A DNA stretch of 64,000 bases from Candidatus Bathyarchaeia archaeon. GTDB lineage: Archaea > Thermoproteota > Bathyarchaeia > Bathyarchaeales > Bathycorpusculaceae. Below the pieces are notes generated by a model. It was not told the DNA's origin. It searched no databases and saw nothing but the letters and a program-made list of their open reading frames with translations. Positions 1,876-53,961 of the stretch are shown here, in pieces. The stretch's first letter is position 1. Each line of letters begins with the position of its first letter. The DNA lies in NCBI GenBank assembly GCA_050012255.1, contig JBEKHN010000005.1, forward strand, positions 32,001-96,000, given 5' to 3'. A program made the translations under genes and the position numbers.

Positions 1876-2385
1876 ATGGTGAAGATTCATGATAGAAAAT
1901 TCGTTTCAGCAGACCCGGACAAGTGCGTAGGATGCCAAGTGTGCGAGTACATCTGCTCATGGACGAAGGAAAAAGCCTTCAACCCGTTGAAATCCAGAAT
2001 ACGCGTCGTGAGGATAAACCAGCTGATAAACATGGCAGTCACGTGCAGACTCTGCGAAGACCCGCCCTGCGTTGCCGCATGCCCAAGAGAGGCGCTGACC
2101 CAATCAGAAGAAACAGGACTCGTGTCCGTGGACAAAGACAAGTGCAACGGCTGCGGATGGTGCATCGAAGCATGCGACTACGGCGCAATCATGCTGCATC
2201 CAGACAGCAAAGTGGTCTACATTTGTGACTTGTGCAAAGAAAAAGGGGAGCCCCAATGCATCAAATGGTGCCCAGAAGAAGCCCTAGACCTCGTCACGAG
2301 CGACGTCCTGGCACAGAAGGCAAGAATCACAGCGGTGAAGAAACTCTTCCAAGAAGCCGTACAAGAAACAACAAAGAAGTCCTAG
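1876..2385 (+). CDS. 4Fe-4S dicluster electron-transfer subunit (DmsB/HycB-like) of the AOR operon
   Basis: Four Cys clusters CVGCQVCEYIC, CRLCEDPPCVAACP, CNGCGWCIEAC, CDLC..PQCIKWCP; GGAGG upstream of ATG 1876. Confidence 0.9.
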   Translation: MVKIHDRKFVSADPDKCVGCQVCEYICSWTKEKAFNPLKSRIRVVRINQLINMAVTCRLCEDPPCVAACPREALTQSEETGLVSVDKDKCNGCGWCIEACDYGAIMLHPDSKVVYICDLCKEKGEPQCIKWCPEEALDLVTSDVLAQKARITAVKKLFQEAVQETTKKS

Positions 2386-2409
2386 CACGCGCTAACTTAT
2401 TCAAAAGTA

Positions 2410-2633
2410 TCAAATCTCTTTTAAGAGTTTGAGGAATTCTTCCCTCGTCAGGCCTGCTTCACTTATGATTTCCATCAGTAAACCTCTTTTTATCTCTCTA
2501 TGTCTTGGAACTGGCACAATGCACTCGTTTTGATGAGCATTAGATGGCTTCCCTTTTTTCTAGCAACTCGGAAACCCAGTTTCGCAAGGACTTTAACAAC
2601 TTCACGCCAAGAGAGCAGAGGGAGCTTCGACAA
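2410..2633 (-). pseudogene. hicA: HicA-family toxin, frameshifted
   Basis: Manual translation: MSKLPLLSWREVVKVLAKLGFRVARKKGSHLMLIK, then after a frame change at the T4 run 2528-2531, IVPVPRHREIKRGLLMEIISEAGLTREEFLKLLKEI*; overlaps the hicB stop. Confidence 0.82.
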
Positions 2634-2832
2634 CTACCTCAACCTTTTCTCCTCTAATCTTGCCGTGAAGCTTTGCCTTAACTTCCAAATAGCCCTCAAT
2701 AGCTTCCCTGATGTTTTTTAGGGCTTCATCCCTTGTTTCGCCTTGAGTAGCTACTGGAAGCTCCAAGCACTTAACTACGAAGCCGCCCTCCTCAGCAGGC
2801 TCCAAAACAACCGTGAACCTACGGGTAACCAT
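2602..2832 (-). CDS. hicB: HicB-family antitoxin
   Basis: FTVVLEPAEEGGFVVKCLELPVATQGETRDEALKNIREAIEGYL is a typical HicB signature; directly upstream of hicA. Confidence 0.88.
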   Translation of the reverse strand: MVTRRFTVVLEPAEEGGFVVKCLELPVATQGETRDEALKNIREAIEGYLEVKAKLHGKIRGEKVEVVVEAPSALLA

Positions 2833-2996
2833 AAAACCGCCAGAAACACAATATTGCGGCATCTATATGAACCTATCTTTAATCTTAAATTGCACTACGA
2901 GAGCATCAGAATCAAATCGTGGTCTTCGCGATTTTCGAACCCTTCCTCTTTTCTCTGAGTCGGGTTCACTCCAGAAGCGCGCTCTATGCTGGCTTG

Positions 2997-4080: not shown

Positions 4081-4208
4081 TGTATTCGCGTTTTTTCCAG
4101 TCTATTTTACTCTCACCATCCCCCTCGGGTGTTAGTACTGCAAGTAGGCGCTGGTGAAGGCCCTAGTGGATTTGCGCGGGTCTGAGGTCGTCCGCGCGCA
4201 TCGAGCTT
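4081..4208 (+). repeat. ~130-bp intergenic element, copy 1
   Basis: Aligns by eye (roughly three quarters identical) to the reverse complement of 12187-12315: TGTATTCGCGTTTT..TCTATTT..C-rich..GGGTG.TAGTACTGCA.GTAGGCG.TGG..AAGGCCCTA. Confidence 0.85.
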
Positions 4209-4303
4209 GGCGGAGAGTCTGTTGTAGACTTAAGAAACTGTTCATTGTGCTCAACTGTCACGCTGGTTTCTCGTTTCATCTGCTCTGTCGCCCTAGCGCG
4301 CGC

Positions 4304-5051: not shown

Positions 5052-5057
5052 TCCTTG

Positions 5058-5537
5058 TCACTTCTTCCTTAGCTGTTCGAATTCAAAGTTCTTTGGACAC
5101 AACAGTATCTCATCGACCCAGATGCTGGTGGCGACCTCCCTGACCATGGGATGTCCTTGTATCGACTCTTTGAGTTGCCCCAACCTGCCAACGTTTTCAA
5201 GTACTGCTATCGCGAATATGTTGTGTCTGCCCATAGATGGGCTGCAGAAAACTACTCCTGGCATCCTTTCGATAAAGTCCACGACATCCTCGACGTGAGG
5301 ATACTCGACGCGAATTCCAAAGCTCGCAACACAATCACAGCCAAAGCTCTTGGGGTTCAACAGTATCGTTGTCCCTCTGACAACACCGGCTCTCCTCAAC
5401 CTCCCAAACCTCTTGCTTATCGTATCCACAGACACCTTGCAACCCTTGGCAATGTCTGCAAAGTTCGTGCGCGCGTCTTCCTGCAAAGCTCGAATGATGT
5501 TAACGTCAATTTCGTCAATCTTCATTTTGGAAGCCAA
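5058..5537 (-). CDS. Lrp/AsnC family transcriptional regulator
   Basis: IDEIDVNIIRALQEDARTNFADIAKGCKVSVDTISKRF HTH; tandem with a paralog. Confidence 0.9.
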   Translation of the reverse strand: MASKMKIDEIDVNIIRALQEDARTNFADIAKGCKVSVDTISKRFGRLRRAGVVRGTTILLNPKSFGCDCVASFGIRVEYPHVEDVVDFIERMPGVVFCSPSMGRHNIFAIAVLENVGRLGQLKESIQGHPMVREVATSIWVDEILLCPKNFEFEQLRKK

Positions 5538-12018: not shown

Positions 12019-12186
12019 TATTTAAACAATTCAGTATGAAACATCTGTGCAAATTTTCTAGAACAATACTACACTGATTCTATATATCAATTATTCCCAA
12101 GATGTTCGATAACTTCAGAACAGATCCACCATACGAGTGAGGCTTCGTTAAACGTGAAACACGACCCCGCTCCAGACTCTACGTTG

Positions 12187-12315
12187 AGCCCTATGCACAC
12201 ACTCGGCCCCAGGCCTGCGGAAAGTCGGTAGGGCCTTGCCCAACGCCTACGTGCAGTACTAGCACCCTAGGGGGGAGGGGGAGGGTGAAATAGACGAGGT
12301 GAAAACGCGAATACA
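12187..12315 (-). repeat. ~130-bp intergenic element, copy 2
   Basis: Reverse complement aligns with 4081-4208; contains GGGGGGAGGGGGAGGG on the + strand. Confidence 0.85.
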
Positions 12316-19956: not shown

Positions 19957-20065
19957 CGTGCTTCTGTGCTTGTGTGAGTTGAGTTTGTGTAGGCTCGGTG
20001 TTTCGCGTTTGACCCCCCTCGTGTTTTTTAGTAACGTCAGTTGTAATGTTGTGTGGTAACAAGTC

Positions 20066-20650
20066 TTGAAGAAGCAGACAGGTATGTGGGTCGATGCTCA
20101 AGTGTGGGGTGCCTACAGGATTCTTTGCAGCCGCGAGAAGCTGCGGCCGTCCGAGCCGTTAGAGGAGTTTCTTAAACTTGTGCTGCGGACCGGTTCGGCT
20201 TTATCGGTTTTGAACATGATGCAGGGTATGGCGAAGGCGAGGCTTCAAGGTTTGGAAGCTTATGCTCGCGTACTCCTCAACTGGTACAAAAATGGAAAGC
20301 AGTGGGTCTACGTCTCAGATGAGGGTGAGGCCCCTGTGGAAACGATGCTTTTGCACGCGTTGAAGGACGTTGCGGACCCGCAGCTGCGCAATGATATACA
20401 GGAAGCCCTAATGATGAAGCCCAGCAAACAGGCCGACGAGAAAGAAGGGAAGAGAAGAATAGATGCGAAAGAAGAGCCAGCGACAAAGCCAGAGGTGCCC
20501 GCAGAGCCTGCAGCAACCGCATTCTCGGAAAGAATCGGAATGATCGAAAAGCAAGTTGCGAATCATGAAATGGGCCCGGAACAGGCGATGAAAATGCTGG
20601 AGAAGATACGTCAAATGCGAAAAAAACTCAAGACTGATGAACAGGGTTGA
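20066..20650 (+). CDS. Hypothetical protein, possible ribbon-helix-helix-like N-terminus
   Basis: 194-aa ORF, TTG start; KQTGMWVDAQVWGAYRILCSREKLRPSEPLEEFLK has an RHH-like pattern; charged C-terminus. Confidence 0.6.
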   Translation: MKKQTGMWVDAQVWGAYRILCSREKLRPSEPLEEFLKLVLRTGSALSVLNMMQGMAKARLQGLEAYARVLLNWYKNGKQWVYVSDEGEAPVETMLLHALKDVADPQLRNDIQEALMMKPSKQADEKEGKRRIDAKEEPATKPEVPAEPAATAFSERIGMIEKQVANHEMGPEQAMKMLEKIRQMRKKLKTDEQG

Positions 20651-25875: not shown

Positions 25876-25916
25876 TTTTAAACCTCTAGTTTGTCTTCTG
25901 TTTACGCGCAGATAAT

Positions 25917-31681: not shown

Positions 31682-31693
31682 TTCCTACCGGTT

Positions 31694-33788: not shown

Positions 33789-35567
33789 ATGAACGCATTC
33801 GATTGGCTTTCGCTTGCTGCAAGTGTCGTTTGCATTTCTTTGGGCGTTGTGGTTTACTCTTTCAACAGAAGAGCTTTGTTGAACAAGCTTTTCGTAATGA
33901 CCAGTTTTTTTGCGTTTTTTTATGCGTTCACTGAGGTTATGATGTGGCAGGCAAGTAGTTTTGAAAGCGCTTATTTCTGGAATAAGATGGGTTCTGTATG
34001 GCCTTTCTTCGTGGTTTCAGTTGCTCATTTTGCCCTAGCCTTTACCGGTAGTAAATGGCTAAGAAACAAGCTAGCCTATCTGCTTCTGTACTTGCCCGCC
34101 GTGCTGTTTTGCATTATCGAAGTGTTTACCGACATGATAAACGGGCCCCCAATTATGAAGTATTGGGGGTACAATGATACTGCATCAAACACATTGGTTT
34201 ACGGCATAAGCACTCTTTGGTCCGCAGCTTTGCCGATTTTGGCGTTTGTTTTGTGCTTTAGATCCTACCGCAGGACAGACGAAGAAGCCTTGAAACAGCA
34301 GAGAAAGTCTGTGACAATCGGCTTCGCTGTTCCTATTGCCGCTTTCGTGGTTACTAACATGCTGTTTCGGTCAGTCGGTATTGACATTCCAAATTTGGGG
34401 ATTGTTGCTGTCTTGTTTTTTGGCGGTTTTGTTGGGTATGGAATCTTGAAATATGAGTTGTTTTCTTTTGACGCTGCTGTTGCCGCAGAGAACATCGTTT
34501 CCACGATGCCAGACTCGCTTGTCTTGGCGGATATGAAGGGAAAAATGTTTAGGGTCAATAATCGTTTGGTGGAATTCTTGAGCTATGGCAAAGATGAATT
34601 GATTGGAGAGTCGATTTCCAAATTATTTGTGGAAGAGATGCGATGTGCAAGTGTTTTGAAGGAGTTGGCGGAAAAGAGAGTCATCCGTAATTATGAACTA
34701 GCGTACAAGACTAAATTTGGTGAGGAGAAGCATGTTCTGTTTTCGGGTTCAGTTGTTCGGAGCAAAACAGGTCGAGATATTGGAATTACATGCGTTATTC
34801 GCGATATTACAGAGCGCAAGGAGATGGAACAAAGACTTGTTAAGGCAGAAAGGCTTGCCTCGATTGGAGAATTGGCAGGACAAATTGGGCACGACCTTCG
34901 AAACCCCTTAACAGGCATCAAAGGTGGTGTTTACTTCCTGAGAACGAAAGGTGACAAAGTCAATAATGCAGACAGGGAAATGATTTTGGAAACGATGGAT
35001 AGAGCGATTGAGGATTCCAACAGGATCATTAACAGCCTTGTAGATTACTCAAGCGAACTGCGTCTGCAACTCGCCAAGTGCACGCCCAAGTCGCTTCTTC
35101 TAAATTGTCTGTCTAAGATTCATGTCCCAGAGCGCATAAGCATTTTAGACCACACCTTAGATGACCTCGAAATGTTTTTAGATGCTCCCAGAATGGAAAA
35201 AGTCTTCGCCAGCATGATACAAAATGCAATTGATGCCACTCCTGAAAAAGGCACCATAGAAATACGAAGTGCCCAGGTGGGTTCCGATGTGGAAATCACC
35301 TTTGCTGATTCGGGAACGGGCATACCCGAGAATGTTCTGCCAAAGATTTTCTCGCCTCTAATAACCACCAAGGCGAAAGGAATGGGCATGAGCCTGGCAA
35401 TTTGCAAACGGATCGTAGACGCGCACGGCGGCAAAGTCGCAGTCGAAAGTACGGTGGGGAAAGGAACAACGTTTACCATTACCTTGCCAATTAAGCCGAA
35501 AACCGAATTCGCCGTCGAAAATACTTGGATGATAACTATGAAACCCACTATCATTGGAGAAAGTTAG
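33789..35567 (+). CDS. Membrane (7TM) PAS sensor histidine kinase
   Basis: Seven hydrophobic helices, PAS, ERLASIGELAGQIGHDLRNPL, QNAIDA, DSGTGI, TTKAKGMGMSL. Confidence 0.93.
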   Translation: MNAFDWLSLAASVVCISLGVVVYSFNRRALLNKLFVMTSFFAFFYAFTEVMMWQASSFESAYFWNKMGSVWPFFVVSVAHFALAFTGSKWLRNKLAYLLLYLPAVLFCIIEVFTDMINGPPIMKYWGYNDTASNTLVYGISTLWSAALPILAFVLCFRSYRRTDEEALKQQRKSVTIGFAVPIAAFVVTNMLFRSVGIDIPNLGIVAVLFFGGFVGYGILKYELFSFDAAVAAENIVSTMPDSLVLADMKGKMFRVNNRLVEFLSYGKDELIGESISKLFVEEMRCASVLKELAEKRVIRNYELAYKTKFGEEKHVLFSGSVVRSKTGRDIGITCVIRDITERKEMEQRLVKAERLASIGELAGQIGHDLRNPLTGIKGGVYFLRTKGDKVNNADREMILETMDRAIEDSNRIINSLVDYSSELRLQLAKCTPKSLLLNCLSKIHVPERISILDHTLDDLEMFLDAPRMEKVFASMIQNAIDATPEKGTIEIRSAQVGSDVEITFADSGTGIPENVLPKIFSPLITTKAKGMGMSLAICKRIVDAHGGKVAVESTVGKGTTFTITLPIKPKTEFAVENTWMITMKPTIIGES

Positions 35568-35684
35568 CCGATCCTCTTGCGAATTTACCGGTAAGAAAGC
35601 GTTGCAGAATCCGGATTTCTCACAGACAAAAGAAAATTATAACCATCTGAAAGCTTAACGCGCGCTGAAGGATTTTCGTTTTCT

Positions 35685-35769
35685 TGCTCAACCACCTTTG
35701 TAAGCGCTCAACACCGTTGAGCAAGTTTTCTGCTCAATACTATTGAGCATTTATATAGGGCATTGAGCA
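35685..35769. promoter_or_regulatory. Array of TGCTCAA/TTGAGCA palindromic operator-like sites around a TATA box
   Basis: Half-site 35685, GCTCAAC-ACC-GTTGAGC 35706-35722, TGCTCAATA-C-TATTGAGCA 35731-35749, TTTATATA 35750-35757, half-site 35763. Confidence 0.7.
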
Positions 35770-35948
35770 AGATTCCACTACAGCCTTCTCCAAAAAAACA
35801 ATTCTCTTTTGATTTTCGTATTTCTCTCAAGCAGATATTTCATCAGAGTTCGGTCTGATTGGCGCGCGCGCAGAGTTTGAGAAAGAAACATAAGATACTA
35901 GCGTGTTTTGAGGAGAGAGGAACAAGCGCCTTACGGTGAGATGTCAAA

Positions 35949-36401
35949 ATGGCACAGACTACAGATGGATCATCCGCGCAGGATGAAGTCAGGAGTGTTA
36001 TAGTTAATCGGCTCGACGCCATGAAGAACAAGAACGAGGGTGCGGTTAAAGCACTTGTTGATGAGCACTACAACAAGTTTGACGACTGGCCCCCCTTTGA
36101 GAGGCAGGAAGGCCTGAAAGCCTTGGAGAACGAGTTCGGGGCGTTCAAGGTGATGTCCAGCTACAGTTACGAGTTGAGGGATTTTCAAGCGAACATTCTC
36201 GGGAACACGGCGATTGCCACGTTCATCATACATTATCAGGCAGTGATGAGAAACAGGGCGTTCGACGTGACTTCACGCGTCACATCCGTCCTCAACAAAC
36301 AAGATTCAGGATGGAAGGTGGTCCACGAACACTACTCCAGGTTTCCTGACCCGACAACGCAACAACAACGATTCATGCCCCGCCGAACGATGCAACCCTA
36401 A
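35949..36401 (+). CDS. SnoaL/NTF2-like protein
   Basis: C-term RVTSVLNKQDSGWKVVHEHYS; GGTGAG upstream. Confidence 0.85.
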   Translation: MAQTTDGSSAQDEVRSVIVNRLDAMKNKNEGAVKALVDEHYNKFDDWPPFERQEGLKALENEFGAFKVMSSYSYELRDFQANILGNTAIATFIIHYQAVMRNRAFDVTSRVTSVLNKQDSGWKVVHEHYSRFPDPTTQQQRFMPRRTMQP

Positions 36402-36473
36402 CCAGCGCGTGCGTCGATCAATGACTGAGGAATTGACTATTTTTTAATTTTCCGATTATCTTTTTTAGTTTGT

Positions 36474-39400
36474 TCAAGAAGAACCATTGTGACTTTCGAT
36501 AAGCTGCCTTTCTTCAGCTCCCACCGCGTACAACTCGTAGACGAGTTCATCAATTTTTTCTTCGTAAACTGCTGCCTCACGTTTAAGCAATTCAATACGC
36601 GACGAATCTGAAATCGTATTTATGGCTTGGTTTAACCTCATAATTTTCAAGGAAAGTGCAGCTATTTGATCTTTCAAACCATTTTGGCTATCGTCTCTAG
36701 GGCGTATTATGGGCAAAGATTGAATGTATTGCTTGTTGTACGCGAAGAACCCACCACTGAAACGAGTGCTAATCTTCTTCGTCAAATAATCCAGTAACTT
36801 GCTGTTCAGCAAACCAACTAAATAGAACGGATCTATATTCGATTTTTCATTAATTGAAAGCCCGTAACCCCCACCACCTCCTCCTCCACTACCGAGGAAA
36901 TAGTACGAACCATTTTCATCGTAAGCAAACGCGGCTTTCTTAGCAATAGATGGTGTCAGTATCTTTTCTTTGCTACATTGCACCAAGTTCTGATTTCTTG
37001 AATATGCATACCATTCAGAGCATTTCCATTTCCCATGCTCACGTTCTTCCAAGATTCTCTTATTTAGCTGAAGATAACTTGCACAATTTGGAAACTTATC
37101 TTCAAGTTCACGGAATAGAATTAGCTTTGCTGTTGCGCCCTTAACATAATATGGAAAAATAACGTATTTTTGGGGACTAACAATTCTGTAGCGACGAATG
37201 TCAAGGGAACCTTTCAACAGAGGTCGCAATAATTTTCTTTCAATTTTGACGTTCCGTTCAATTGTCTTTGAATACAGCTCAACTATTTCTTTTCCAATTC
37301 CGCCCTTGAGTTCTAGAACAAATACCTTATCTGCTCCTGTGATTATTCCCTGAAAGATTTTATCACAAACATCTGATAAGACTGGCTTGATCAAAGACAG
37401 TTTGTTCAGTAACTTTGACTCATCGCCAAAACTAAATTGCCAAGGCTGTTCGCAAATATTACTTAAGGGCAATGTAGTTACGAAAAGTGAAGAGTTGCGG
37501 TATTCAATATTCTTCGCTACAAAAGATAGTTGACTCGCGGGATTTTCAATTCTCTTAATCTCAGTATACTTGAACGTCTTCCTCTCAGATTTGCTTAGAA
37601 ATAATAGGTTAGTGTATGTGGTAACTTTTTCGAAAACCTGTTGGTCTCCGAAGTTGACTATTTCTCGCAAGTACTTGTTGCTGGATATTAACTGGCGCAG
37701 GTTCTTGCCATATTCAGCTTGGAAGAATTTGTTGGGAAGAATAAATCCAAATAATCCATTTTCGTCCAACAGTTGCATTGCTTTTTCTACGAAAACAACG
37801 TAAATGTCATAGTTGCCACTTTCAGCTGTTTTGTACTTATGAGAAAAATATTCGACTTCTTTGGAAGCCCATTCCTTCATTGTTTGAATGCGGATATAGG
37901 GTGGATTGCCGATAATCGCGTCGAATCCGCGTGTCTGATTGATTATGTTCCCGAATCCAGTCTTTTTTGAATACCAGTCAAAACAATTTACCTTTTCTTT
38001 TTCAACGTCTTCGATAAGTGTCTTTTGTTCAAGAAAATCGAACCCAACTAGCGAGTTTCCACAACGGATGTTTTTTGAAAGCGATGGCAAAAGTTCCTTA
38101 TTATGGGGTAGGGCTCGTTCGCCCTCAAGAATTTTGATGTATAAACTCATCATGGTTATTTCTACGGCTTGTGGGTCTAAGTCAATGCCAAAGATGTTGT
38201 TTTTCAGCATCTCGCCTTTCTTGTAAATACTCAAACGAGGAATCGGGTTTCCATCTTCATCGTAAGAAACGATAACATTAGGGAACAACTCACCGCGTTT
38301 TGCTTCTTTGGGATATGATTCATAATACTTCAAATGATATTCGAATAGACGGTTAATCGCCTCAATGAGAAAACTGCCACTTCCACACGCAGGATCAAGT
38401 ATGTGAATGCTTTCGATTTGTTTAGGAGATTTGCCTTCAATAAGTTTGCCAACAGTGTTTTCAACTATGTAACTGACGACCCATCTAGGCGTGTAAAAAA
38501 CTCCGCCTGCCTTGCGCACTTCTGGTTTTTCTTCTACCTTAACTCTTTTCTCAGTTAACCGTATTGTCTTGCCCAAATATTTTTCATAGATTGTTCCAAG
38601 AAGTTCTACGCCGATTACTGCAAAGTTATAAGGGCTCTTAGGGGAATATAATCCGTCGATTATTTCAGCCACTATAGGCGATCCATAAGAGATTTTCTCA
38701 CAAGAATGATCTTTGAAAATCTCACCGTTAAAATCATTGTTGAGTTGCTTAAATAGCAGATTTAATTGGGCTTGAATGTCTCTATGTCTTCCTTCTTTCC
38801 AAGTGTCAGCGATTTCCTTCAAGGTCTTGAAATCAATTATTTTCCTGTCTTCAAGAAGACGTATGAAGATAAGCCTGTCTAATAGCCGCTGGACAACGTC
38901 GTTGAGCTCCCTGACTGTTATTGCGGGATTGCGCTTGTGAACCTCTTTCGCCAACTCTTCGCGCCATAGAGTCATCTGGTCAATTAACGCTGCGTCAACA
39001 GGTATGCGTAGGCGTTTTGCTGAAGGGTCTTTAGAACTCAATTGATCAAGCGAACCACTGACTACTTTCTCTTTAGAGAAAAGCCAAAGCCGATCAAAAT
39101 CAGTAGTTCCAAACTCTTCAAACTTCAGTTCAAAAATCAAACCAAGCTGTGGTTGCTTTAGATCTGGTTTTATTGTTGTGTCAAAAACCTTGAACGACTT
39201 AAAATCAGTTAAGACTGCGATGTTCACGCTGGTTGTGTTCCAGCCGTAACGCTTAGCTTGAAAGATATCTTCTGACTTATCAGTGCCTTTGGCTGGTGCT
39301 TTAGTTTCAACAAAAAACCTGTCTTGACCATTTATGCGAAATGAGTAGTCTGGGCGACCTGTTGTATCGCCCTTCTCTACGAGGACTTCCCGTTGAAGCC

Positions 39401-39581
39401 TAGAAAGCTTGTTCTTGTTAACGATGTCCCAGCCGAGTGCTTTAAACAGCTCGTCAACAAAATCAGTGCGGAGTTGACTCTCTAAGTATCCGCTGGATTC
39501 GTATTCAGGTTGGTTGGACGTAAATCGGTCTATGAGTTCCTGAATTGTTCCTTTCGCATATTTGGCGTCTGGATCCGTCAA
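36474..39581 (-). CDS. Type IIG (Eco57I/TaqI_C-like) fused restriction endonuclease-methyltransferase
   Basis: N-term PD..ETK nuclease + QAKRY, GVFYTP, ILDPACGSGSFL, IIGNPPY, C-terminal TRD (YLVGLLNSKL); visibly AT-rich. Confidence 0.92.
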   Translation of the reverse strand: MTDPDAKYAKGTIQELIDRFTSNQPEYESSGYLESQLRTDFVDELFKALGWDIVNKNKLSRLQREVLVEKGDTTGRPDYSFRINGQDRFFVETKAPAKGTDKSEDIFQAKRYGWNTTSVNIAVLTDFKSFKVFDTTIKPDLKQPQLGLIFELKFEEFGTTDFDRLWLFSKEKVVSGSLDQLSSKDPSAKRLRIPVDAALIDQMTLWREELAKEVHKRNPAITVRELNDVVQRLLDRLIFIRLLEDRKIIDFKTLKEIADTWKEGRHRDIQAQLNLLFKQLNNDFNGEIFKDHSCEKISYGSPIVAEIIDGLYSPKSPYNFAVIGVELLGTIYEKYLGKTIRLTEKRVKVEEKPEVRKAGGVFYTPRWVVSYIVENTVGKLIEGKSPKQIESIHILDPACGSGSFLIEAINRLFEYHLKYYESYPKEAKRGELFPNVIVSYDEDGNPIPRLSIYKKGEMLKNNIFGIDLDPQAVEITMMSLYIKILEGERALPHNKELLPSLSKNIRCGNSLVGFDFLEQKTLIEDVEKEKVNCFDWYSKKTGFGNIINQTRGFDAIIGNPPYIRIQTMKEWASKEVEYFSHKYKTAESGNYDIYVVFVEKAMQLLDENGLFGFILPNKFFQAEYGKNLRQLISSNKYLREIVNFGDQQVFEKVTTYTNLLFLSKSERKTFKYTEIKRIENPASQLSFVAKNIEYRNSSLFVTTLPLSNICEQPWQFSFGDESKLLNKLSLIKPVLSDVCDKIFQGIITGADKVFVLELKGGIGKEIVELYSKTIERNVKIERKLLRPLLKGSLDIRRYRIVSPQKYVIFPYYVKGATAKLILFRELEDKFPNCASYLQLNKRILEEREHGKWKCSEWYAYSRNQNLVQCSKEKILTPSIAKKAAFAYDENGSYYFLGSGGGGGGGYGLSINEKSNIDPFYLVGLLNSKLLDYLTKKISTRFSGGFFAYNKQYIQSLPIIRPRDDSQNGLKDQIAALSLKIMRLNQAINTISDSSRIELLKREAAVYEEKIDELVYELYAVGAEERQLIESHNGSS

Positions 39582-39602
39582 GGTAATCTGCTAAGCATAT
39601 GT

Positions 39603-40364
39603 TTAATAGCATTTAATATTTTGTTGTTCCCCAGCGTTTGTCTTGCGCGCGCGCTTTTGTATTCTCGTTATTAGGCACGCTTTGATGCAGAGGCCGCATA
39701 CGTCCCCGCCGAACACGATTTGAATGTATTCGTGACATTTCTCCTTGTTTATCAGCCATCCTTCAGAAGCATCGTAGACTGGGTTTTCCAAGGCTCCGGC
39801 AGGACATGCCTTGACGCATTTTAGGCACTTCTCCATGAGGCAAATGTCCTCGGTCAAGGGTCTATCAGGTCTAAGCGCGGCGCTTGTTATGACTGTGACA
39901 AAACGTACGTAAGGCCCGTAATCTGGTGTCAAGACCAGATTGTTCATTCCAAATCTGCCTAGGCCAGCTGCGACGGCCGCGTGCTTGTGCGACATATCCC
40001 CGAAATTCTTCTTCTTATCGTACGGTGAGCTGGCTGGAATCGCTAAAGCTTCGTATCCAAGGTCTTCGAGAAATCTGGCTGTCTCCCATGCCAGGCTGTT
40101 AAGCTTGAGGTTTGCCACGTCATAGTTTATCTTGTACTCTCTCATGGTTTTTGGAAGTTGAAGAATTGAAGACCTGTTTATTCTTAGACCTATGGAGATG
40201 ACACTTTTGGCGTTCGGCAAGAGGTCTCTCGGACGATGGCCTTTCGGCGCTCTTGAGAATCTTTTGGTGGTTGCAACTCCTACGAGTGTTGCTCCCTTCT
40301 TTTTGACGAAATCTTTGACCTTCCCCGTGAGACCAGCCAAGTTTTCACCTTGGGAACTGCTCAT
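39603..40364 (-). CDS. Epoxyqueuosine reductase (QueG)/reductive-dehalogenase-like Fe-S protein
   Basis: LLPNAKSVIS, SHKHAAVAAGLGRFG.NNLVLTPDYGP, CxxCxxxCP and CGLCIKAC. Confidence 0.85.
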   Translation of the reverse strand: MSSSQGENLAGLTGKVKDFVKKKGATLVGVATTKRFSRAPKGHRPRDLLPNAKSVISIGLRINRSSILQLPKTMREYKINYDVANLKLNSLAWETARFLEDLGYEALAIPASSPYDKKKNFGDMSHKHAAVAAGLGRFGMNNLVLTPDYGPYVRFVTVITSAALRPDRPLTEDICLMEKCLKCVKACPAGALENPVYDASEGWLINKEKCHEYIQIVFGGDVCGLCIKACLITRIQKRARKTNAGEQQNIKCY

Positions 40365-44872: not shown

Positions 44873-45298
44873 GAAAAGCCAATTCTTCCTGCAGTGCCCA
44901 GCGCAACTCGCTATTCTCGAAGACCAAAGGCTTATCGTAGACTAGCACATTTGCAGCAGTAAACATTCATAGCATCAAATGGTTTGACCCTTAAACCGAA
45001 GCCGTTGGACTCGGCCTTCTAGGAAGCCAGGTACTCGGCGGATTCTTTCTTTTCCCATTTCGTTAGCTCATCCTGCGACTTCAAGTTGAATCTGAGCAGG
45101 TCTATCACGTCACTTTTCCACTGATCTGGCGAAGCGTGTATCGCTCTTCCAATTTACAGGCTTCTGAGCAATTGTAGCGTCGCGCGCGCTCCAGAGAATA
45201 GTAGAAAAAGAGCACCCGCGATTCTGGCAGATTACATCCTGTCGTTTCTTGCCAAATAGCGCACTATCGTTAAATAAGCATGCAACGAAGATTCTCAT

Positions 45299-47999: not shown

Positions 48000-48380
48000 C
48001 TACAATCGAGGCGAGAGTGATCTCGAAAACTCTTTGGCGACAATGAACACGATGCTGCAAACAACGTCACAGTCAAGGTCGTTCTCCTTGACAATGTCCT
48101 CCGAACTCTTTCTCACAGAAAAAACTACCCTTATAGCCGCGCTTTCGCAAGCAGGATCATTCGTCAACTGATGCACAAGGGTACTCATTCGTTTTGAAGC
48201 GTTCTGCAATTGCTTCTTGGTCACCAGATTACATTTCATCTCAAGGCGCTTCATCAAGTATTCTTGGATTTCCGCTTCTCTTGTCTTCCGCATATAATCC
48301 CCGAACACTCTCACTAAGGAACGCCATTCTGCACTAGTACATCCCACGCATTTCGACGTGTGTGGCGCGTTCCAAAGCAT
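48000..48380 (-). pseudogene. Hypothetical ORF or possible C-terminal gene fragment
   Basis: 126-aa helical-looking ORF starting 5 nt from a GCGCGC motif (48386-48391); family not recognised. Confidence 0.35.
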
Positions 48381-48800
48381 TGTTAGCGCGCATGCTTGTT
48401 CCTAAATTCCGTTCAAGAGGGAGGCATGGCGTTTTCCAATGGTCGATGGTTACTGTCACGGTTCGAGTGGGTGCTTGCGTGCTCACACCCTCCCCCCGGG
48501 GATCCTATATGACCCAAATATGATTGAAGAGCAAAATGAGCAGCACAAGGTACTTCCCGAAAGAATTCAGGAATACGCTAGCGCGCCAGCTTTTGGATTG
48601 TGCACGCCAACTGAACAGAAAAATGGGGTTTGCGGGAGAACACGGAAATTGAATTTCCGAAATCTCGACTCGGAATATGGATTCTGGGTTCTGAAATGCC
48701 TTATCCAGAAGGTGAAAATGTATGAATATGGCAAAAGTGAAAGACTGGCTTTCTGCAATTCGGCGCGCGCCATATTGGTATACTACAAGAGGTGATATCG

Positions 48801-51332
48801 ATGCGGCGGCTTGATCGATTGCGATCCTCTTACTTCGTAATAGTTATCTTGATCTTTGGCTCCCTTTCAGCAAGCTCATCTTCGTACCAAACCTCCCCAC
48901 TCGCATTGGCACAGCCACCTCAACCCCCCTCTATTGGCGTGAACCTCGTGAACACTACGTACAGAATAGCTCCGTCCAACCGTAGTGGATGGCTGTCTAC
49001 AGGTCAGTCAGCGGAGATAATGCTGTCAGGAATCGATTTCAACAATACAGGGGGACCCCTGCTCTTCAACCATCCTGCCGGGATAGCCACCGACGGACAG
49101 CACTTGTTAGTTGTTGACAGGAACAACAACAGAATACTCATGTGGAACACGATCCCCGCGTCCAACTCCCCGCCAGACCTAGTCCTCGGCCAGAAAAACT
49201 TCTACGCCAACAACCCGGGGCACGGGCTGGACGGGCTGAACTGGCCCAGCCAAGTCTCAACCGGCGGGGGAAAGGTGGTTGTGGCCGATTCCTACAACAG
49301 CCGCATCCTGATCTGGAACACCTTTCCTACCGAGAACGGCCAGCCGGCGGACCTGGAGCTGGTCGGCCAAGGCGACCAAAACAAACTTGCCGACATTAAC
49401 TGGCCGTGGGGCGCTTGGACTGACGGGACGAAGCTGGTCGTGTCCAGCACGGGCAGGAGCCTCGTCCTGATCTGGAACGCCTTTCCCACCCGGAACAACC
49501 AATCCGCCGACATCTACCTCACGGCGTTGGGAAAGTTTGGGACGCCCAGAATGATAACCAGCGACGGCGAGCACTTGATGGTCGGCGATCACAACGCCAA
49601 GGTTTCATCGCCAGATGTTGGCGGGACATTCGTCTGGAACACTTTCCCAACCGAGAACGACCAACCCTACGATTACTTTGCAGCCGCCTCTTCCGCGTGG
49701 GGGGCAATGAACGGGTTCAGTTTTGCACGTGGTGTCATCCTCCCCGACGGGCGGACTATTCTGCTCGGGGAGGTCCTTTACATCTTCAACTCGTTCCCGC
49801 AGAATGACAGCGTCACGCCGGATGTGATGATTAGCGGGGCGGCGGACACAAGTTTCAGCGGGGGGGATGGCTCCGATGTTGCCGTCGTGGGCACGAGCCT
49901 CTTCCTTTCACTGTACAACCCTAACAAGATAGTCGTGTTCAACAGCATCCCAACAAGCGCAGATGCGTCACCAGATTTCGTGATCGGCGCCCCCGACCTT
50001 TCCGTCAACACCCTCGCCGCCAACTACTTCTTCACGAATCCGGAACCGGCAACGGACGGCAGAAGCCTGTTCGTCGCATCGGATTTCGACAGCAAACTGT
50101 ACGTGTACAGGCACCTGCCAGACCAGTCCAACGCCTACCCCGACGTTGTCTACGATTTCAGGGGCGTTAACTTCCCGCCTTGGGCCATCTGCCTTTACAA
50201 TGGGACGTTGGCGCTCGCAGGAAGGCAGGACGTGTACATCTGGACCGAAACACCCTTGGACGGACAACTTCCCAACATTCACTTCTCAGGGGGCATCGGC
50301 AACGCGACCTTCCAAGACCTGAGAGGCGTGGCGCTAGACTCAGAGCATTTCTACCTAGCCGACAAAGGAGCTGGGAAAATCTATGTCTGGAACAGCATCC
50401 CATCGAACGATAGCGTAAGCCCAGCCATCACACTGTCCACCGACGGACCAACGAGGCTTTCGAGCGATGGAGAGTACTTGGCAGTCGCTGCGACGGAGAG
50501 CGGGCCCAGGGGATCAGTCAGGATATACAACCTCTCAACCTTCGGCACCGACTCGCAACCAGTGAACCTAGGGGGAATAAACCAGCCGCAGCTGGCCACG
50601 TTCAACCTTCCACAGGAGGCAGTCGTCGCTCAGGGGCATCTTTTCGTTGCGGACACGGGCTTCAACCGGGTTCTGGTGTGGAGCAACATCACAAGCGCGC
50701 TCGGCGGCGCCGGCGCTGACATCGTCCTGGGCTGCACTGGGGACACCTCAACCTGCAGAAACGACCCGGAGATCGGGAGGGACAGGTTGTTCTGGCCCGC
50801 GGGCATCACGTTTGACGGCAACTATCTTTGGATAGGCGAGTTCAAGTTCTCGGGCAGATTGCTGAGGTTGGGCGTTGGTGCCACCCCGTCGTCCGTGCCG
50901 AGAACCGAGCTCTACAACATTCAAACGGGAGCCCAATCTTTCATTGCGAGCTTGGAAACGAACTCAAGTACCTCTGCGTTGGAGTTCTCGTTTTCGACCA
51001 AAAGCATTAACGTGAACAGTTCGTCCCCGGCGGTCTCTTACGTTAACGCAACGTTCCCATCAAGCCTCTTGGGTGGAACGCTTGCCGCGTACGTGGATGG
51101 ATCTTCCGTAACCCCCGCTATTTGTCAAGGTAGCACTGACACATCCGTATACCTAACCGTCCCATCCGGGGATCACACTATGCGAATCACCGGTACTGAG
51201 GCTGTTCCCGAGTTCACGGGGCCCGTCCTGGTTTGCATACTGCTCGTGTCAACCGTCTTGGGGGCGATTTTTTCAATATTATTCAAGACGAAATCGGTTC
51301 AGAAAGATAGAAGAAGACACGAAAAAGACTGA
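48801..51332 (+). CDS. Surface NHL-repeat (beta-propeller) protein with PEF-CTERM-like anchor
   Basis: Signal peptide; repeats such as P.GIATDG..LLVVDRNNNRILMWN, VADSYNSRILIWN, VADTGFNRVLVW; C-term AVPEF-TM-basic. Confidence 0.88.
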   Translation: MRRLDRLRSSYFVIVILIFGSLSASSSSYQTSPLALAQPPQPPSIGVNLVNTTYRIAPSNRSGWLSTGQSAEIMLSGIDFNNTGGPLLFNHPAGIATDGQHLLVVDRNNNRILMWNTIPASNSPPDLVLGQKNFYANNPGHGLDGLNWPSQVSTGGGKVVVADSYNSRILIWNTFPTENGQPADLELVGQGDQNKLADINWPWGAWTDGTKLVVSSTGRSLVLIWNAFPTRNNQSADIYLTALGKFGTPRMITSDGEHLMVGDHNAKVSSPDVGGTFVWNTFPTENDQPYDYFAAASSAWGAMNGFSFARGVILPDGRTILLGEVLYIFNSFPQNDSVTPDVMISGAADTSFSGGDGSDVAVVGTSLFLSLYNPNKIVVFNSIPTSADASPDFVIGAPDLSVNTLAANYFFTNPEPATDGRSLFVASDFDSKLYVYRHLPDQSNAYPDVVYDFRGVNFPPWAICLYNGTLALAGRQDVYIWTETPLDGQLPNIHFSGGIGNATFQDLRGVALDSEHFYLADKGAGKIYVWNSIPSNDSVSPAITLSTDGPTRLSSDGEYLAVAATESGPRGSVRIYNLSTFGTDSQPVNLGGINQPQLATFNLPQEAVVAQGHLFVADTGFNRVLVWSNITSALGGAGADIVLGCTGDTSTCRNDPEIGRDRLFWPAGITFDGNYLWIGEFKFSGRLLRLGVGATPSSVPRTELYNIQTGAQSFIASLETNSSTSALEFSFSTKSINVNSSSPAVSYVNATFPSSLLGGTLAAYVDGSSVTPAICQGSTDTSVYLTVPSGDHTMRITGTEAVPEFTGPVLVCILLVSTVLGAIFSILFKTKSVQKDRRRHEKD

Positions 51333-51505
51333 TGCTGAGACTGATAACCTTGGACCAGAGAAAAAGAACTCAGCAATCCAATTTCGTTGTTCGGGAGATA
51401 TCTCCACTGCTTGCGGGGTTACGACCAACACATCAGCCTGCCAGAAGGACGAGCGCGTTCTTGTTTGTTCTTCTCGAATTCGGTGGGATTCGTTCGAATC
51501 GATGG

Positions 51506-52273
51506 TTAAGGTTTGACTCGTCTGAAGGCGACTGTCGCGGCTGCGAAGGCGATGAGACTCTCAACTATGAGTGCTGCTATCTCGATGGGCAGAAGGGGGA
51601 CGTAAACCTGCAGAAGTCCGGCTCTGAGCATGTCTGCAGCGTAGGTTAGAGGATTAGCCAATGAAACGGCTTGAATCGCGAGCGGCGCTTTTTCCAGAGG
51701 GTAGTAGACTGAACTCAGAAACATCAGAGGAGTGAACAACACGTTGAGAATCGCGTTGAACGCCTCGTTGGATTTTATGAACACAGAAATGGCCAGCGTC
51801 AGAGAACCGAAGAAGAGAGCCCCCAACAGAAGCGAGCCGGCAATGTAGAGCACACCCTCGAATGAGATTTTTAGCCCTGCAAGCAACGGAGAGGCGATGA
51901 GAAAAACCAAGAACGCGTTCAGCATTCCCTGAAGCATGATAGAAACCAGCTTGCTGAGTATGTACTGCCACCTGCTGAACGGCCCCACAACTATCTGCGA
52001 GAACATCGCCAGCCTTTTGTCAACCCAAAGCATCGCTCCGGCCATAGACGCGGCAAACATTATCTGCATGACCACCACTCCTGGGGCAAGAAAGAGGACG
52101 TAGCTGATCGCTCCGCTGGCAGCAATCGTTTTTGGATCGATGATAGCTCCATAGACAAACCCGGCGACGAAGATGTAGAACAATGGGGTTACAAGCTGGA
52201 CGGCCATGATGGATTTGGTTGACCAAAGGCCAGCCCTCAGGTCCCTGTACAACAGTCTAAGAAAACTGTTCAT
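51506..52273 (-). CDS. ABC-2 type transporter permease
   Basis: Six TM segments, FLAPGVV, FLSSVYYPL, NPLTYAADMLR. Confidence 0.92.
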   Translation of the reverse strand: MNSFLRLLYRDLRAGLWSTKSIMAVQLVTPLFYIFVAGFVYGAIIDPKTIAASGAISYVLFLAPGVVVMQIMFAASMAGAMLWVDKRLAMFSQIVVGPFSRWQYILSKLVSIMLQGMLNAFLVFLIASPLLAGLKISFEGVLYIAGSLLLGALFFGSLTLAISVFIKSNEAFNAILNVLFTPLMFLSSVYYPLEKAPLAIQAVSLANPLTYAADMLRAGLLQVYVPLLPIEIAALIVESLIAFAAATVAFRRVKP

Positions 52274-53225
52274 TGCGTTTCACTCCCTTCGAATTCACCA
52301 TCTGAACGAACACGTCATCCAGTGATGGTTCCTCTATCCTGAGTTCTGTTATACGCGCTCCGAGGGTCGTTGCAGCATCGATTATTCTGGGCATCACCAC
52401 GTTCGCATCTTCTGCATACAACTTCAACGGCTCGTCCCTCTGCTGCGGAGGGACAATTTTCTGAACGCCAGGCAAACTCTGCAGTTTTCGGTCCAAATCG
52501 CTAGTGTACTCAGCGAAACGCAGATGAATAACGCTTACCGCTCCAAATCTGTGCTTAACATTCTTTATCGTGTCCAAGGCCAGGATCTGTCCGTGGTTGA
52601 TTATGGCGATTCTGTCACAAACGTACTCGGCTTCCTCCATTATGTGCGTCGTGAAGAAAACGGTCACACCGTTTCTCACCTTCTCGCGCACGAATTCCAA
52701 GGTTACTCTTCTGGCCTGAGGGTCCAAGCCGGTCGTGGGTTCGTCTAGAAACATGAGCCCAGAATCGTGCATGAACTCTCTCGCAACCTGCAGACGCCTT
52801 CTCTGCCCAATTGACAGTTCAGGCGCATGCGTCTTCCGCGCCTCCTCCAAACCAAACTTGTCGAGAAGAAGCTCGATCCTCTCCTTTCTCTCCTTCTTGG
52901 GCACGTTCCACAAAAGCCCGTACAGGTCAAGATTTCCTTCCACACTCAGCGCATGCTCGTAGCTCGGCTCCTGCTGCACGACGCCTATCCTAGGCCTAAT
53001 CTTGCCTCCTTCAGAAACAACGTCAAACCCAAGGACAGTGGCCTTACCGCTCGTGGGTCGCAAGAGCGTGGTCAACATCTTTATAGTCGTTGATTTGCCC
53101 GCGCCGTTTGGGCCCAGAAAACCGAAAACCTCACCCTTCTCAACGTTGAAAGAAACGTGGTCAACAGCCACAAGGCTACCATAACGCATCGTCAGTTCGC
53201 TTGTTTCAATGCAAACCTGTGGCAA
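52257..53225 (-). CDS. ABC transporter ATP-binding protein (DrrA-like)
   Basis: GPNGAGKST, LSIGQRRR, FLDEPTTGLDP, TTH, EPSLDDVF. Confidence 0.94.
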   Translation of the reverse strand: MPQVCIETSELTMRYGSLVAVDHVSFNVEKGEVFGFLGPNGAGKSTTIKMLTTLLRPTSGKATVLGFDVVSEGGKIRPRIGVVQQEPSYEHALSVEGNLDLYGLLWNVPKKERKERIELLLDKFGLEEARKTHAPELSIGQRRRLQVAREFMHDSGLMFLDEPTTGLDPQARRVTLEFVREKVRNGVTVFFTTHIMEEAEYVCDRIAIINHGQILALDTIKNVKHRFGAVSVIHLRFAEYTSDLDRKLQSLPGVQKIVPPQQRDEPLKLYAEDANVVMPRIIDAATTLGARITELRIEEPSLDDVFVQMVNSKGVKRNEQFS

Positions 53226-53521
53226 TCTACTCCACCGATGAAATCAGACTGTGGTCAGTGCTCAATAGCGTTGTGGAAAGAAGTGGTCACCGCCCATGAG
53301 GAATCGGACGAGATGTGGTCACTGGAACTACTCCAGCGTTGACTCTGCTTTGTGCCCGGAATCTAGCAGGTTGCACGTGATGATGGCCAGGTTTTTCGAT
53401 GGGGCTGGTTTTGAGCTGCCGAAGGGCGGAATATTCCACTTTTTGATACATATCGGGATTTGAAAGAAATGTTATCTTGAGATTCGCGATATAAGTCCAT
53501 GATGACACAGGTGTCGACGGC

Positions 53522-53758
53522 ATGAAGAAACAGAAAAAGGCCACACTGCGCAACGTTGAAACCATCGATAGTATGAAGCTCGGCTGGAAAGTCGAAAGAC
53601 AAGTCCAACAGGAAATTCTACAAAAGAAGCTAATGCAATGTTTCTTAGAGCCAAGCGAGGGGCACGCGTGCATCGCCCGATACCCAGAAGCTATGCAGCC
53701 GATGATTGAGGATTTCATGCGAAAGGCAGAGAAGCAAACCAGACTCAACGGAACATAG
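53522..53758 (+). CDS. Small hypothetical protein
   Basis: 78-aa ORF, AGGTG upstream, followed by a GCGCGC motif at 53772. Confidence 0.5.
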   Translation: MKKQKKATLRNVETIDSMKLGWKVERQVQQEILQKKLMQCFLEPSEGHACIARYPEAMQPMIEDFMRKAEKQTRLNGT

Positions 53759-53961
53759 CGTAGTCTAGCAAGCGCGCACAACTCCTTGGCAAAACTAGTT
53801 CCTGAAGTTTTCAGATTTTTGACAGACTGCTAGGTCTTTGCTGGTTGTCGTTCTCTCTTCTTCATCTTATTGTAGAGGTGTTCAAACGACCCGTGGAGTT
53901 GTAGCCCACGACGAGTGAAAACGCGACACAGGAAACATTAACACGCGCGCTTTCAGTGCTT

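Follow-up and report, generated by a model that had tools for sequence, protein, structure and literature searches.

The gene cassettes of integrons are bounded by attC sites, which are imperfect hairpins of tens of nucleotides (nt), and recombination takes place only between sites that already exist; an integron integrase, with attI and a promoter, adjoins an array of cassettes that share one orientation. Cut-and-paste DDE transposons of the IS5/PIF-Harbinger and Tc1/mariner types leave footprints in the form of short palindromic remnants. Repetitive extragenic palindromic (REP) elements are imperfect palindromes of about 20–40 nt with a conserved head, and are spread by a RAYT transposase. 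Fillers are also known from end joining, including eukaryotic non-homologous end joining and alternative end joining, the N-nucleotides of V(D)J recombination and the single additions made by the bacterial LigD polymerase; their sequences are either variable or copies of neighbouring DNA. The highly iterated palindrome HIP1 is reported to be abundant within genes and to have a link with a cognate methyltransferase. HIP1 is the palindrome GCGATCGC of cyanobacteria (PMC6604393, PMC6105098). The GC clusters of yeast mitochondria are described as short GC-rich non-coding palindromes that occur sporadically, change in copy number and pass from one species to another. They are considered mobile despite having no enzyme of their own, the cluster studied best measures 42 nt, and they form sequence families with putative target duplications (PMC4478555). 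Optional palindromic (A)n/(T)n microsatellites in the spacers of Fusarium mitochondria, with insertions or deletions (indels) and single nucleotide polymorphisms nearby, have been reported (PMC7218506). Here we describe a palindromic motif, A(GC)3–5T, in a 64,000-nt stretch of the genome of a Candidatus Bathyarchaeia archaeon (genome G000, C5:32001–96000). This whole stretch is referred to as the window.

The motif lies at break points between genomes and arises de novo at deletion joints, and motifs that have been formed are used again. We favour, with a confidence slightly short of even, the interpretation that A(GC)3–5T is a junction scar, a palindromic filler that is often written at illegitimate joints and later re-used. 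In a literature search with partial coverage we came across no account of this motif at the joints of indels.

Occurrence and structure of the GC motif

Counted with overlaps, the window contains 45 matches to the hexamer GCGCGC, whereas 100 dinucleotide-preserving shuffles gave 15.08 ± 4.55 (largest 31). The matches merge into 30 alternating GC runs, including TAGCGCGCGCTA at 21570–21581. Sixteen of the runs lie outside a mask of greedily chosen open reading frames (ORFs), eight in doubtful ORFs of 85–118 amino acids (aa) and six in convincing genes (at 5469, 50695, 53772, 56328, 58575 and 61755). The initial annotation had estimated by eye about 25 sites outside recognised genes and about five within, which matches this tally. 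It had also placed no motif between the genes of the core block at 54–64 kb, and all three runs of that block indeed fall within ORFs.

In the whole genome (2,351,129 bp) GCGCGC is found 593 times inside the mask and 760 times outside, corresponding to 0.29 versus 2.24 per kb. When all 4096 hexamers are ranked by the ratio of non-coding to coding density, CGCGCG comes first (7.69) and GCGCGC second (7.61), with TATA-like words such as TTAAAT (7.01) below them. The remaining GC-only palindromes of G000 have outside/inside ratios of 0.6–2.1. The excess over shuffles in the window and the 7.6-fold non-coding density in the genome confirm the enrichment over background suspected in the initial annotation; the excess is real. 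In total, G000 holds 919 GC runs in 2.35 Mb, 484 of them outside the mask. A general microsatellite effect was rejected, as other dinucleotide repeats have non-coding/coding ratios of 0.9–5.7 compared with 7.6 for GCGCGC. Restriction avoidance or pressure was also rejected, the observed/expected ratios in confident coding DNA being 0.90 for GCGC, 0.94 for CGCG and 1.29 for GCGCGC.

The unit can be written as (T)A(GC)3–5T(A), without conserved flanks. In G000 the bias adjoining the runs is confined to positions +1 (T in 59%) and +2 (A in 35%), and positions further out are unbiased. Non-coding runs that start with G number 137 at 6 nt, 114 at 8 nt and 38 at 10 nt, those that start with C 46, 19 and 7, respectively, and a single non-coding run exceeds 10 nt. 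Independent of run length, an A precedes the run in 59–72% and a T follows it in 56–67% of the cases, and both are present in about a third to half of the runs.

The motif is equally dense in all three types of spacer (1.26 per kb in tandem, 1.30 in divergent and 1.58 in convergent ones), and no preferred distance of the motif to gene starts or stops was found in G000. A promoter, terminator or operator is therefore a poor fit, and a role as regulatory or terminator site was rejected on these grounds. The spacers that hold the motif are long, with a median of 396 bp versus 105 bp. Motif-to-motif distances of less than 300 nt generally exceed the frequency under random scatter about 1.4- to 4-fold; at 0–80 nt they exceed it 2- to 3.5-fold, and at 200–220 nt they are at expectation.

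Break points between congeners

The closed genome of the congener G001 (one contig of 2,346,764 bp) was aligned to G000, resulting in 2167 high-scoring segment pairs (HSPs) that cover 1.82 Mb at a mean identity of 85%. Besides G001, G117 and a few others, the genomes used in this study are draft bins. A GC run is found within 5 nt of 334 out of 2104 HSP ends, versus 22.6 expected from compartment-matched random positions, and the words TTTAAA, TTAAAT and TATATA show no excess at HSP ends. Counting only unique blocks of at least 400 bp, which removes the copies of a miniature inverted-repeat transposable element (MITE) described below, leaves 405 blocks. Of their 788 ends, 86 lie within 5 nt of a motif, against 12.0 ± 3.5 in 200 random draws (largest 21). 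The proposal that the motif marks break points of gene gain and loss is upheld by this result, and the break points are not distributed independently of the motif.

Exactly one flank has a homolog in G001 at 36% of the non-coding motif sites, compared with 20% of random non-coding positions and 14–20% for control words. Where both flanks could be mapped in G001, the motif is conserved there at 138 out of 287 G000 sites. A coarse triple-block test of 473 unique blocks found no in-place inversion, and motif-bounded inversions were thus rejected. A motif is present at an end of 28 out of 91 strand switches.

Appearance of the motif at joints

We examined 257 collinear pairs of neighbouring blocks. 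In 252 of these one genome has a gap of 60 nt or more, and in 90 of the 252 the motif stands at one junction or more. Simple indels, in which one side has no more than 20 nt and the other 60 nt or more, number 96. Their short allele contains the motif in 30 cases, whereas one or two would be expected by chance according to our estimate, which is based on 0.39 runs per kb in the genome. The long alleles of these 30 have no motif at either junction in 21 cases, a motif at one junction in six and at both in three. As both junctions of the long allele are free of the motif in 21 out of 30, the motif arose at the joint. In another nine of the 96 indels the motif is confined to the long allele and stands at its junctions, which makes the insert motif-flanked and the empty site plain.

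The initial annotation had proposed that the motif may be the crossover core of a DNA-shuffling system. It does punctuate the accessory genome and mark the break points of shuffling, but it need not exist beforehand, as the 21 motif-free long alleles demonstrate.

Mapping both flanks of every motif yielded 62 events in which a filler of 0–16 nt in one genome stands opposite another stretch in the other. Common fillers are GCGCGC, GCGCGCGC, AGCGCGC and AGCGCGCGCT. The opposite stretch measures 0–3 nt in nine of the events and 36 nt to 54 kb in the remaining 53. Nine pure or near-pure insertions of 4–13 nt show no target duplication, and none was seen in any of the 62 events. Fifteen fillers are 11–16 nt long, and the six longest ones with extra non-GC letters (13–16 nt) are all unique in their own genome.

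Whole genes can be affected. A UbiA gene and a GNAT gene are nearly wholly replaced by filler, and at another such event 342 of the 394 residues of a cohesin protein are lost. In another case a DUF996 domain (aa 2–141) crosses one junction of the long allele at aa 120. The ancestral state was checked for four events in five more congeners. For the DUF996 event the long allele is present in full length in G007 and partially in G008 and G004. The replaced DNA of the event at C5:12605 is found in G007, G003 and G009, and that of the event at C8:12774 in G003, G009 and G004. Since the replaced DNA is found in other congeners in three out of four events, the motif allele is a derived deletion in these three.

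Re-use of existing motifs

At a locus on contig C8, G007 reads ...CTTC-TAGCGCGCGC-CCCTTGAG and G001 reads ...GGAC-CGCGCGCGC-CCCCTTGAG; both carry filler. The right boundary of the two deletion alleles is the same within 1 nt and the left boundaries are 104 bp apart. Another filler located 27 bp further left in G001 sets apart an island of homology of this length. In G000 as well as in G001 the SnoaL block has motifs on either side; its outer neighbours differ, and it starts 5 nt further in in G001. Among 199 unique sites with one mapped flank, homology stops more than 8 nt short of the motif in 79, no motif is present at the G001 boundary in 81, and a motif is present in 39. These 39 boundaries share a motif with differing DNA beyond it, at an offset of 0 in 29 of them; about 16 of the 39 are MITE ends.

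Population data are in line with this. Part of window 25001–35000 is contained in 24 public runs, one of which has 93% of the sampled words. Contigs of four runs were mapped to window 20001–40000, and these inform on presence and joints, not on frequencies. One X5 contig (depth 156, shorter side 73 nt) joins 33364 to 35874 and skips 2509 nt, which is the module of a 7TM kinase. By mapping position, the joint leads from inside one motif to just past another. The run at 35862 is 2 nt shorter in X5. The initial annotation had proposed to look for alternative joins at the motif, and this contig contains one by its mapping. The region of a restriction-modification (R-M) gene at 36.7–39.3 kb has a depth of about 0 in X2, X3 and X5, and both of its flanks are covered in X5. 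Some other parts of the window likewise lack contigs in these three runs. Furthermore, an X1 contig departs from the window at 21026 into CGCGCGCG followed by other DNA, and X3 contigs part from the window exactly at 26190.

A MITE family with motif tips

Clustering of the 60-nt flanks of the runs in G000 placed 196 out of 1838 half-sites into 27 families, and a single repeat family behind all sites was rejected on the basis of this small share. The largest family comprises 98 half-sites with the tip GCGCGC-ATGC-NTGTTCC-AAATTC. Paired copies of 158–349 bp were found 46 times in G000, those at 21412–21581 and 48384–48588 of the window among them, and about 26 times in G001. Partner elements of about 1.1 kb with the same ends, encoding DUF772 and DDE_Tnp_1 domains, are located at G001:389082–390157 and G000 C24:15250–16330. 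The window elements thus resemble IS5-type MITEs in having terminal inverted repeats shared by many short non-coding copies and a longer DDE-transposase partner with the same ends.

The transposase genes at G001:389151–390135 and G000 C24:15321–16308, one of two copies in G001 and the single copy in G000, are frameshifted at the same offset. The coding region of the second G001 copy is likewise in two ORFs. Intact relatives in other genomes are single ORFs of 329–342 aa. The split gene is either a shared pseudogene or subject to programmed frameshifting. Three empty MITE sites have an 8-nt motif versus 6 + 6 nt when filled, resembling a 4-bp GCGC duplication, and four further empty sites have neither motif nor duplication.

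Distribution across the class

The 12-mer TAGCGCGCGCTA was searched for in 41 relatives. It is present in seven copies in G000, in 8 out of 10 other genomes of the genus (1–29 copies) and in 3 out of 30 further genomes (1–3 copies), and the 12-mer read backwards is absent from all 41. Across 401 genomes sampled evenly from the class its occurrence is patchy; 16 genomes besides G000 have 9–40 copies. These 16 belong to families f1, f26 (any copy in 10/16 genomes), f27, f31 (7/10) and f37, and in genus g33 it is found in 3/40. Sampled DNA of G125, G386 and G117 contains the same A(GC)nT units with unique flanks. The motif is enriched 13-fold (G125) and 8.5-fold (G386) outside ORFs of at least 100 aa.

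Origin of the motif

If A(GC)3–5T is a junction scar, illegitimate joining that follows deletion or insertion of DNA, or the exchange of one neighbour for another, would leave a GC filler of 6–10 nt at the joint. The underlying chemistry may be that each broken end acquires an identical short tail, (A)GCGC..., and that two tails anneal over 2–6 nt and are then sealed. Because such a tail is self-complementary, any two ends could anneal. Annealing over 6, 4 or 2 nt would thus give runs of 6, 8 and 10 nt, a limit at 10 nt and symmetric A...T flanks. The scar might later break or recombine again, whereby adjoining DNA would be lost or replaced and the motif kept, and neighbouring scars might recombine so that the module between them is dropped. 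The IS5-type MITE family with its motif tips would then be seated inside such motifs at three sites, with the apparent 4-bp GCGC duplication.

It seems possible, if not quite probable, that several lineages of the class possess an undescribed joining activity that seals breaks with A(GC)3–5T as one defined self-complementary filler and leaves scars that can be re-used as points of breakage and recombination. The scars would thereby promote gene loss as well as shuffling of single-gene modules. Such an activity would be independent of Ku/LigD, reverse transcriptase (RT), PolX, Prim-Pol, C5-methyltransferase and IS5-type transposase. The enzyme would belong to an unrecognised family, or else a core enzyme of replication or repair would have this activity as an unexpected property.

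Several observations weigh against these proposals. The motif is missing from 57 out of 96 simple indels, including ordinary insertions of insertion sequences (ISs) with 9-bp duplications and elements with 13–17-bp direct repeats. The DUF996 locus of G003 has also undergone a separate, independent deletion that is free of filler. On both counts, many joints are made without it. The UbiA event is ambiguous, the motif allele being common to G001 and G007 and the gene being found in G000 only. The long fillers are unique, so a copied template has no support, and copying of filler from another locus was rejected. Shared motifs with differing neighbours, like the X5 joint, could be explained equally well by recombination at existing sites and by fresh filling. 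Beyond the genus, the motif and its intergenic bias were seen and its place at joints was not. In addition, G000 and G001 are the sole pair of genomes compared in full, and the ORF mask, which spans 85.6% of G000, consists of greedy longest ORFs chosen without a gene finder and is hence crude.

The search for a responsible enzyme points in the same direction, as none was found among Ku, IS5-type transposase, C5-methyltransferase, RT, PolX and Prim-Pol. Within the genus Ku and the motif go together. Class-wide, Ku is encoded in 113 out of 401 genomes, in only 2 of the 16 other motif-rich ones and in 31 out of 40 genomes of the motif-poor genus g33, and Ku/LigD was therefore rejected as the agent. 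An IS5-type transposase, searched for with one query, is present in 66/401 genomes, with 4/16 among the motif-rich ones, 0/10 in f31 and 32/71 in the motif-poor family f24; as judged by this single query it does not track the motif, and it was rejected as well. The C5-methyltransferase domain PF00145 is found in 48/401 genomes, in none of 10 from f31 and in 2/16 from f26. The initial annotation had suggested that such a methyltransferase might co-occur with the motif. This is not borne out, since PF00145 gave one weak match in the 16 motif-rich genomes, the N4 and N6 families lying outside this search. RVT_1, the PolX palm and Prim-Pol were each found in 0 out of 5 motif-rich genomes, two of which are less than 90% complete, so that these should be regarded as not found rather than absent.

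Regarding Ku, G000 encodes a complete archaeal end-joining operon at C10:11524–15305, consisting of the LigD polymerase, Ku and a ligase with the LigD phosphoesterase, followed by a DUF72 gene. Within C10:11524–14557 the matches are 263.8 bits for ligD_pol and 139 bits for Ku, next to the ligase and LigD_N.

Other origins of the motif were considered. It might be the pre-existing crossover core of a site-specific, cassette-like system in which modules move between two motif copies through a recombinase encoded elsewhere. The X5 contig linking the motif at 33364 to that at 35874, the SnoaL-like modules that are motif-flanked in both genomes with differing outer neighbours, the 39 one-sided boundaries that share a motif (29 at offset 0) and the three long alleles with motifs at both junctions are all as such a system would have it. 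However, 21 out of 30 long alleles are motif-free at both junctions, and conservation does not extend past ±2 nt, which leaves a recombinase without an arm to bind. A palindromic site should also give some in-place inversions, of which there are none. Module ends shift by 5 nt (SnoaL) and 104 nt (C8) between motif-bearing alleles, and cargo genes lie on both strands. We therefore find a crossover core quite improbable. The solitary motifs could also be excision footprints of the cut-and-paste IS5-type element and its GCGCGC-tipped MITEs, deletions resulting when two copies that flank a gene excise together. The family of 98 half-sites with the tip GCGCGC-ATGC-NTGTTCC, the roughly 46 and 26 MITEs of G000 and G001 with their ~1.1-kb DUF772 + DDE_Tnp_1 partners, and the three empty sites with an 8-nt motif versus 6 + 6 nt when filled make this worth considering. 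Against it, repeated flanks are seen in only 196 out of 1838 half-sites and not in the sampled DNA of G125 and G386, and the small pure insertion expected of a footprint accounts for 9 out of 62 events, whereas 53 replace 36 nt to 54 kb. Neither TA nor GCGC targets are present at the long-allele junctions. The transposase family itself was found in none of the 10 genomes of motif-rich f31 and in 32/71 of motif-poor f24, and the G000 copy and one of the two G001 copies are frameshifted, the second G001 copy being in two ORFs. Taken together, footprints are an unlikely source of the solitary motifs.

Insertion may instead have come first and erosion later, with tiny palindromes being inserted at random and the fragile (GC)n then breaking repeatedly, so that nibbled flanks mimic deletions. 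Such an order of events would account for the nine pure or near-pure insertions of 4–13 nt without target duplication, for the C8 alleles of G007 and G001 with their shared right boundary and left boundaries 104 bp apart, for shared motifs with different neighbours at offset 0, and for the 2- to 3.5-fold excess of spacings of 0–80 nt. It requires the same unexplained insertion step, though. One-sided nibbling should moreover erase the A and T that stand on both sides in about a third to half of the runs, and runs of 6–10 nt are short for cruciform or Z-DNA breakage. We accordingly give this order of events little credence. A functional intergenic signal, such as a protein-binding site, a terminator or a promoter element, could come to lie at block ends merely through fast divergence of spacers. 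The strong intergenic bias, which is seen in distant lineages too, and the conservation in G001 of 138 out of 287 sites with both flanks mapped could be taken as signs of function. Yet TTTAAA, TTAAAT and TATATA show no excess at block ends, the motif has no preferred distance to starts or stops and the same density in all three spacer types, the spacers holding it are long (median 396 vs 105 bp), and whole genes are replaced by it. This makes a signal of this kind exceedingly improbable.

If the motif is indeed a junction scar, it would record hundreds of deletions, insertions and neighbour swaps per genome, and thus provide a datable read-out of gene loss and shuffling in uncultured archaea. 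It would also imply a chemistry of DNA ends without described counterpart, in which identical self-complementary tails make any ends cohesive; this would be of interest for DNA repair and possibly as a tool. Furthermore, it could offer a handle on why short GC palindromes punctuate some genomes, as with the mitochondrial GC clusters and HIP1. Even if the agent should turn out to be transposon-like, so many runs in a prokaryotic genome, along with the replacement of whole genes by 6–10 nt, would be out of the ordinary.

Motif sites and other features in the window

Blocks that the window has in common with relatives start or stop beside the motifs at 20785, 26181, 35862, 39645, 45181 and 53772/53944. 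The cargo modules lie on both strands. Some of the near-matches placed beside modules in the initial annotation are one-letter variants, namely those at 2385 (GCACGCGC), 27536 (GCGCGGGC) and 36405 (GCGCGTGC), whereas 33626 is merely GCGCG and weak. As for its gene names, the PAS kinase, 7TM kinase, SnoaL, NHL and R-M (type IIG Eco57I-like) genes are supported by Pfam, whereas hicBA, TPR and DUF3795 are unconfirmed by it.

A solitary GCGCGC at 2977–2982, between ORFs, has at least one 120-nt flank without homolog in G001, and its decayed partner is the variant at 2385. Two runs (4193–4199 and 4296–4303) at 4193–4303 lie in a doubtful 90-aa ORF and have a flank without homolog in G001. A 102-nt inverted repeat with 75% complementary arms 7.9 kb apart (4120–4221 and 12173–12274) overlaps the 4193 motif with its left arm. 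The run at 5469–5475 inside a conserved gene is an ordinary coding occurrence, conserved or point-variant in G001 with both flanks aligned, and the same comparison identified ordinary coding occurrences at 50695, 56328, 58575 and 61755.

The run GCGCGCGCG at 20785–20793 ends a block common to G001. Homology at 20001–20781 stops 3 nt before the run, and past the equivalent of 20781 G001 has unrelated DNA and no motif. A tRNA-like T-arm word, GGTTCGAGTCC, is found in G001 past this end of homology; ARAGORN detected no tRNA in the window or in this stretch of G001.

The MITE-like element at 21412–21581 was recognised by repeat search and flank clustering. Its terminal inverted repeats read GCGCGC-ATGC-CTGTTCC-AAATTC, with motif tips at 21414 and 21572, and a 96% identical copy is located at another place in G001. 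The second copy, at 48384–48588 with motifs at 48386 and 48581, was found by repeat search and has about 10 related copies in G007.

A gene-poor stretch at 25252–26320 contains five runs (25252, 25589, 25917, 26181 and 26314). Blocks common to G007, G009 and G008 begin at 26190, directly after the run at 26181–26188. A 26-nt unit (AGAACTAAGAG..AGAGAG..) occurs three times in this gene-poor region, at 26272–26297, 26590–26615 and 26814–26839, with spacings of 318 and 224 nt, and a similar word adjoins the G001 copy of the block at 26864–27522. Four more runs (30988, 31139, 31422 and 31531) lie at 30988–31538 between a 1096-aa ORF and the next genes, with flanks that lack a G001 homolog.

The left motif of the 7TM-kinase module is located at 33362–33368, and the X5 contig joint starts within it at 33364. 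A further run at 35659–35665 lies directly downstream of the 7TM-kinase gene (33789–35567), which was identified by Pfam. The run GCGCGCGCGC at 35862–35871, where the X5 joint lands, is both the right motif of this module and the left motif of the SnoaL module. The decayed motif at 36405–36412 separates the SnoaL and R-M genes, and G001 has CGCGCGC at the orthologous place. The type IIG (Eco57I/MmeI-like) R-M gene on the reverse strand at 36474–39581 (Pfam Eco57I, N6_Mtase and TaqI_C) is a strain-specific module between the motifs at 36405 and 39645, and is absent at the syntenic places of G001 and G007. Its right joint is a second GCGCGCGCGC at 39645–39654; homology with G001 and G007 starts at 39657, and G001 has no motif there. 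Near the syntenic place of 40139–40147, an insertion of 1.5 kb is present in G001, with a duplication of 9 bp and ends that read ..ACTGTTAAGTTAT..; it is an ordinary IS without the GC motif. Similar insertions are located at G000 C1:40477 and C4:98083.

At 45181–45189 the window has CGCGCGCGC where relatives hold kilobases, G001 having 1480 nt with ACGCGC-type words at both ends and G007 about 2.4 kb between the same flanks. The run GCGCGCGC at 48763–48770 lies just upstream of the NHL-repeat gene (48792–51332, by Pfam), and nothing corresponds to 48071–51469 at the syntenic place in either G007 or G001. At 53772–53950, runs at 53772 and 53944 surround a 166-nt stretch; blocks common to G007 end at 53763 and resume at 53952, and the 53772 run is a point variant in G001. 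Outside the window, a 38-kb stretch of G000 (C6:4368–42749) absent from G001 has a 17-nt overlap at its ends that includes GTAGCCCGGGAGA, and looks like an integrated element.

Comparison with known systems

Like integron cassettes, the modules described here are single genes bounded by a recurring site and are gained or lost between strains. Unlike them, they lack attC-type hairpins or conserved arms, occur on both strands and have a motif that arises where neither parent had it. An integron-like system is not supported, as bias extends over only ±1–2 nt instead of attC-type ends, and as 21 of 30 long alleles are motif-free where pre-existing sites would be required, no search for an integrase family having been made. 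The family with GCGCGC-tipped inverted repeats and its DUF772 + DDE_Tnp_1 partner resemble DDE footprints and MITEs. Unlike footprints, the majority of motifs stand between unique flanks and take the place of large stretches, and they are also seen in lineages that lack this transposase family. Membership among REP elements is not supported by a unit of 8–12 nt with unique flanks, no search for RAYT having been made.

Like HIP1, the motif is a GC-rich palindrome of 8 nt that greatly exceeds expectation in one lineage for unexplained reasons. It differs from HIP1 in that its 7.6-fold excess is found in non-coding DNA and at the joints of indels and is not accompanied by a C5-methyltransferase; a HIP-like palindrome kept by a cognate cytosine methyltransferase is not supported, since PF00145 does not co-occur. 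Compared with the GC clusters of yeast mitochondria, the unit is short at 8–12 nt, shows no duplication and arises at deletion joints; the other clusters of that kind are, likewise, far longer than this unit. As with the Fusarium elements, short palindromes are optional in spacers and have indels in their neighbourhood. The Fusarium elements, in contrast, consist of AT homopolymer arms in organelle DNA, and the accessible part of that source gives no evidence of their being written at deletion joints.

With the fillers of end joining the motif shares joint letters foreign to both partners, variable deletion sizes and the lack of target duplication. Unlike those fillers, it does not track Ku (2/16), and it is one defined palindrome, A(GC)3–5T, that recurs at hundreds of sites.

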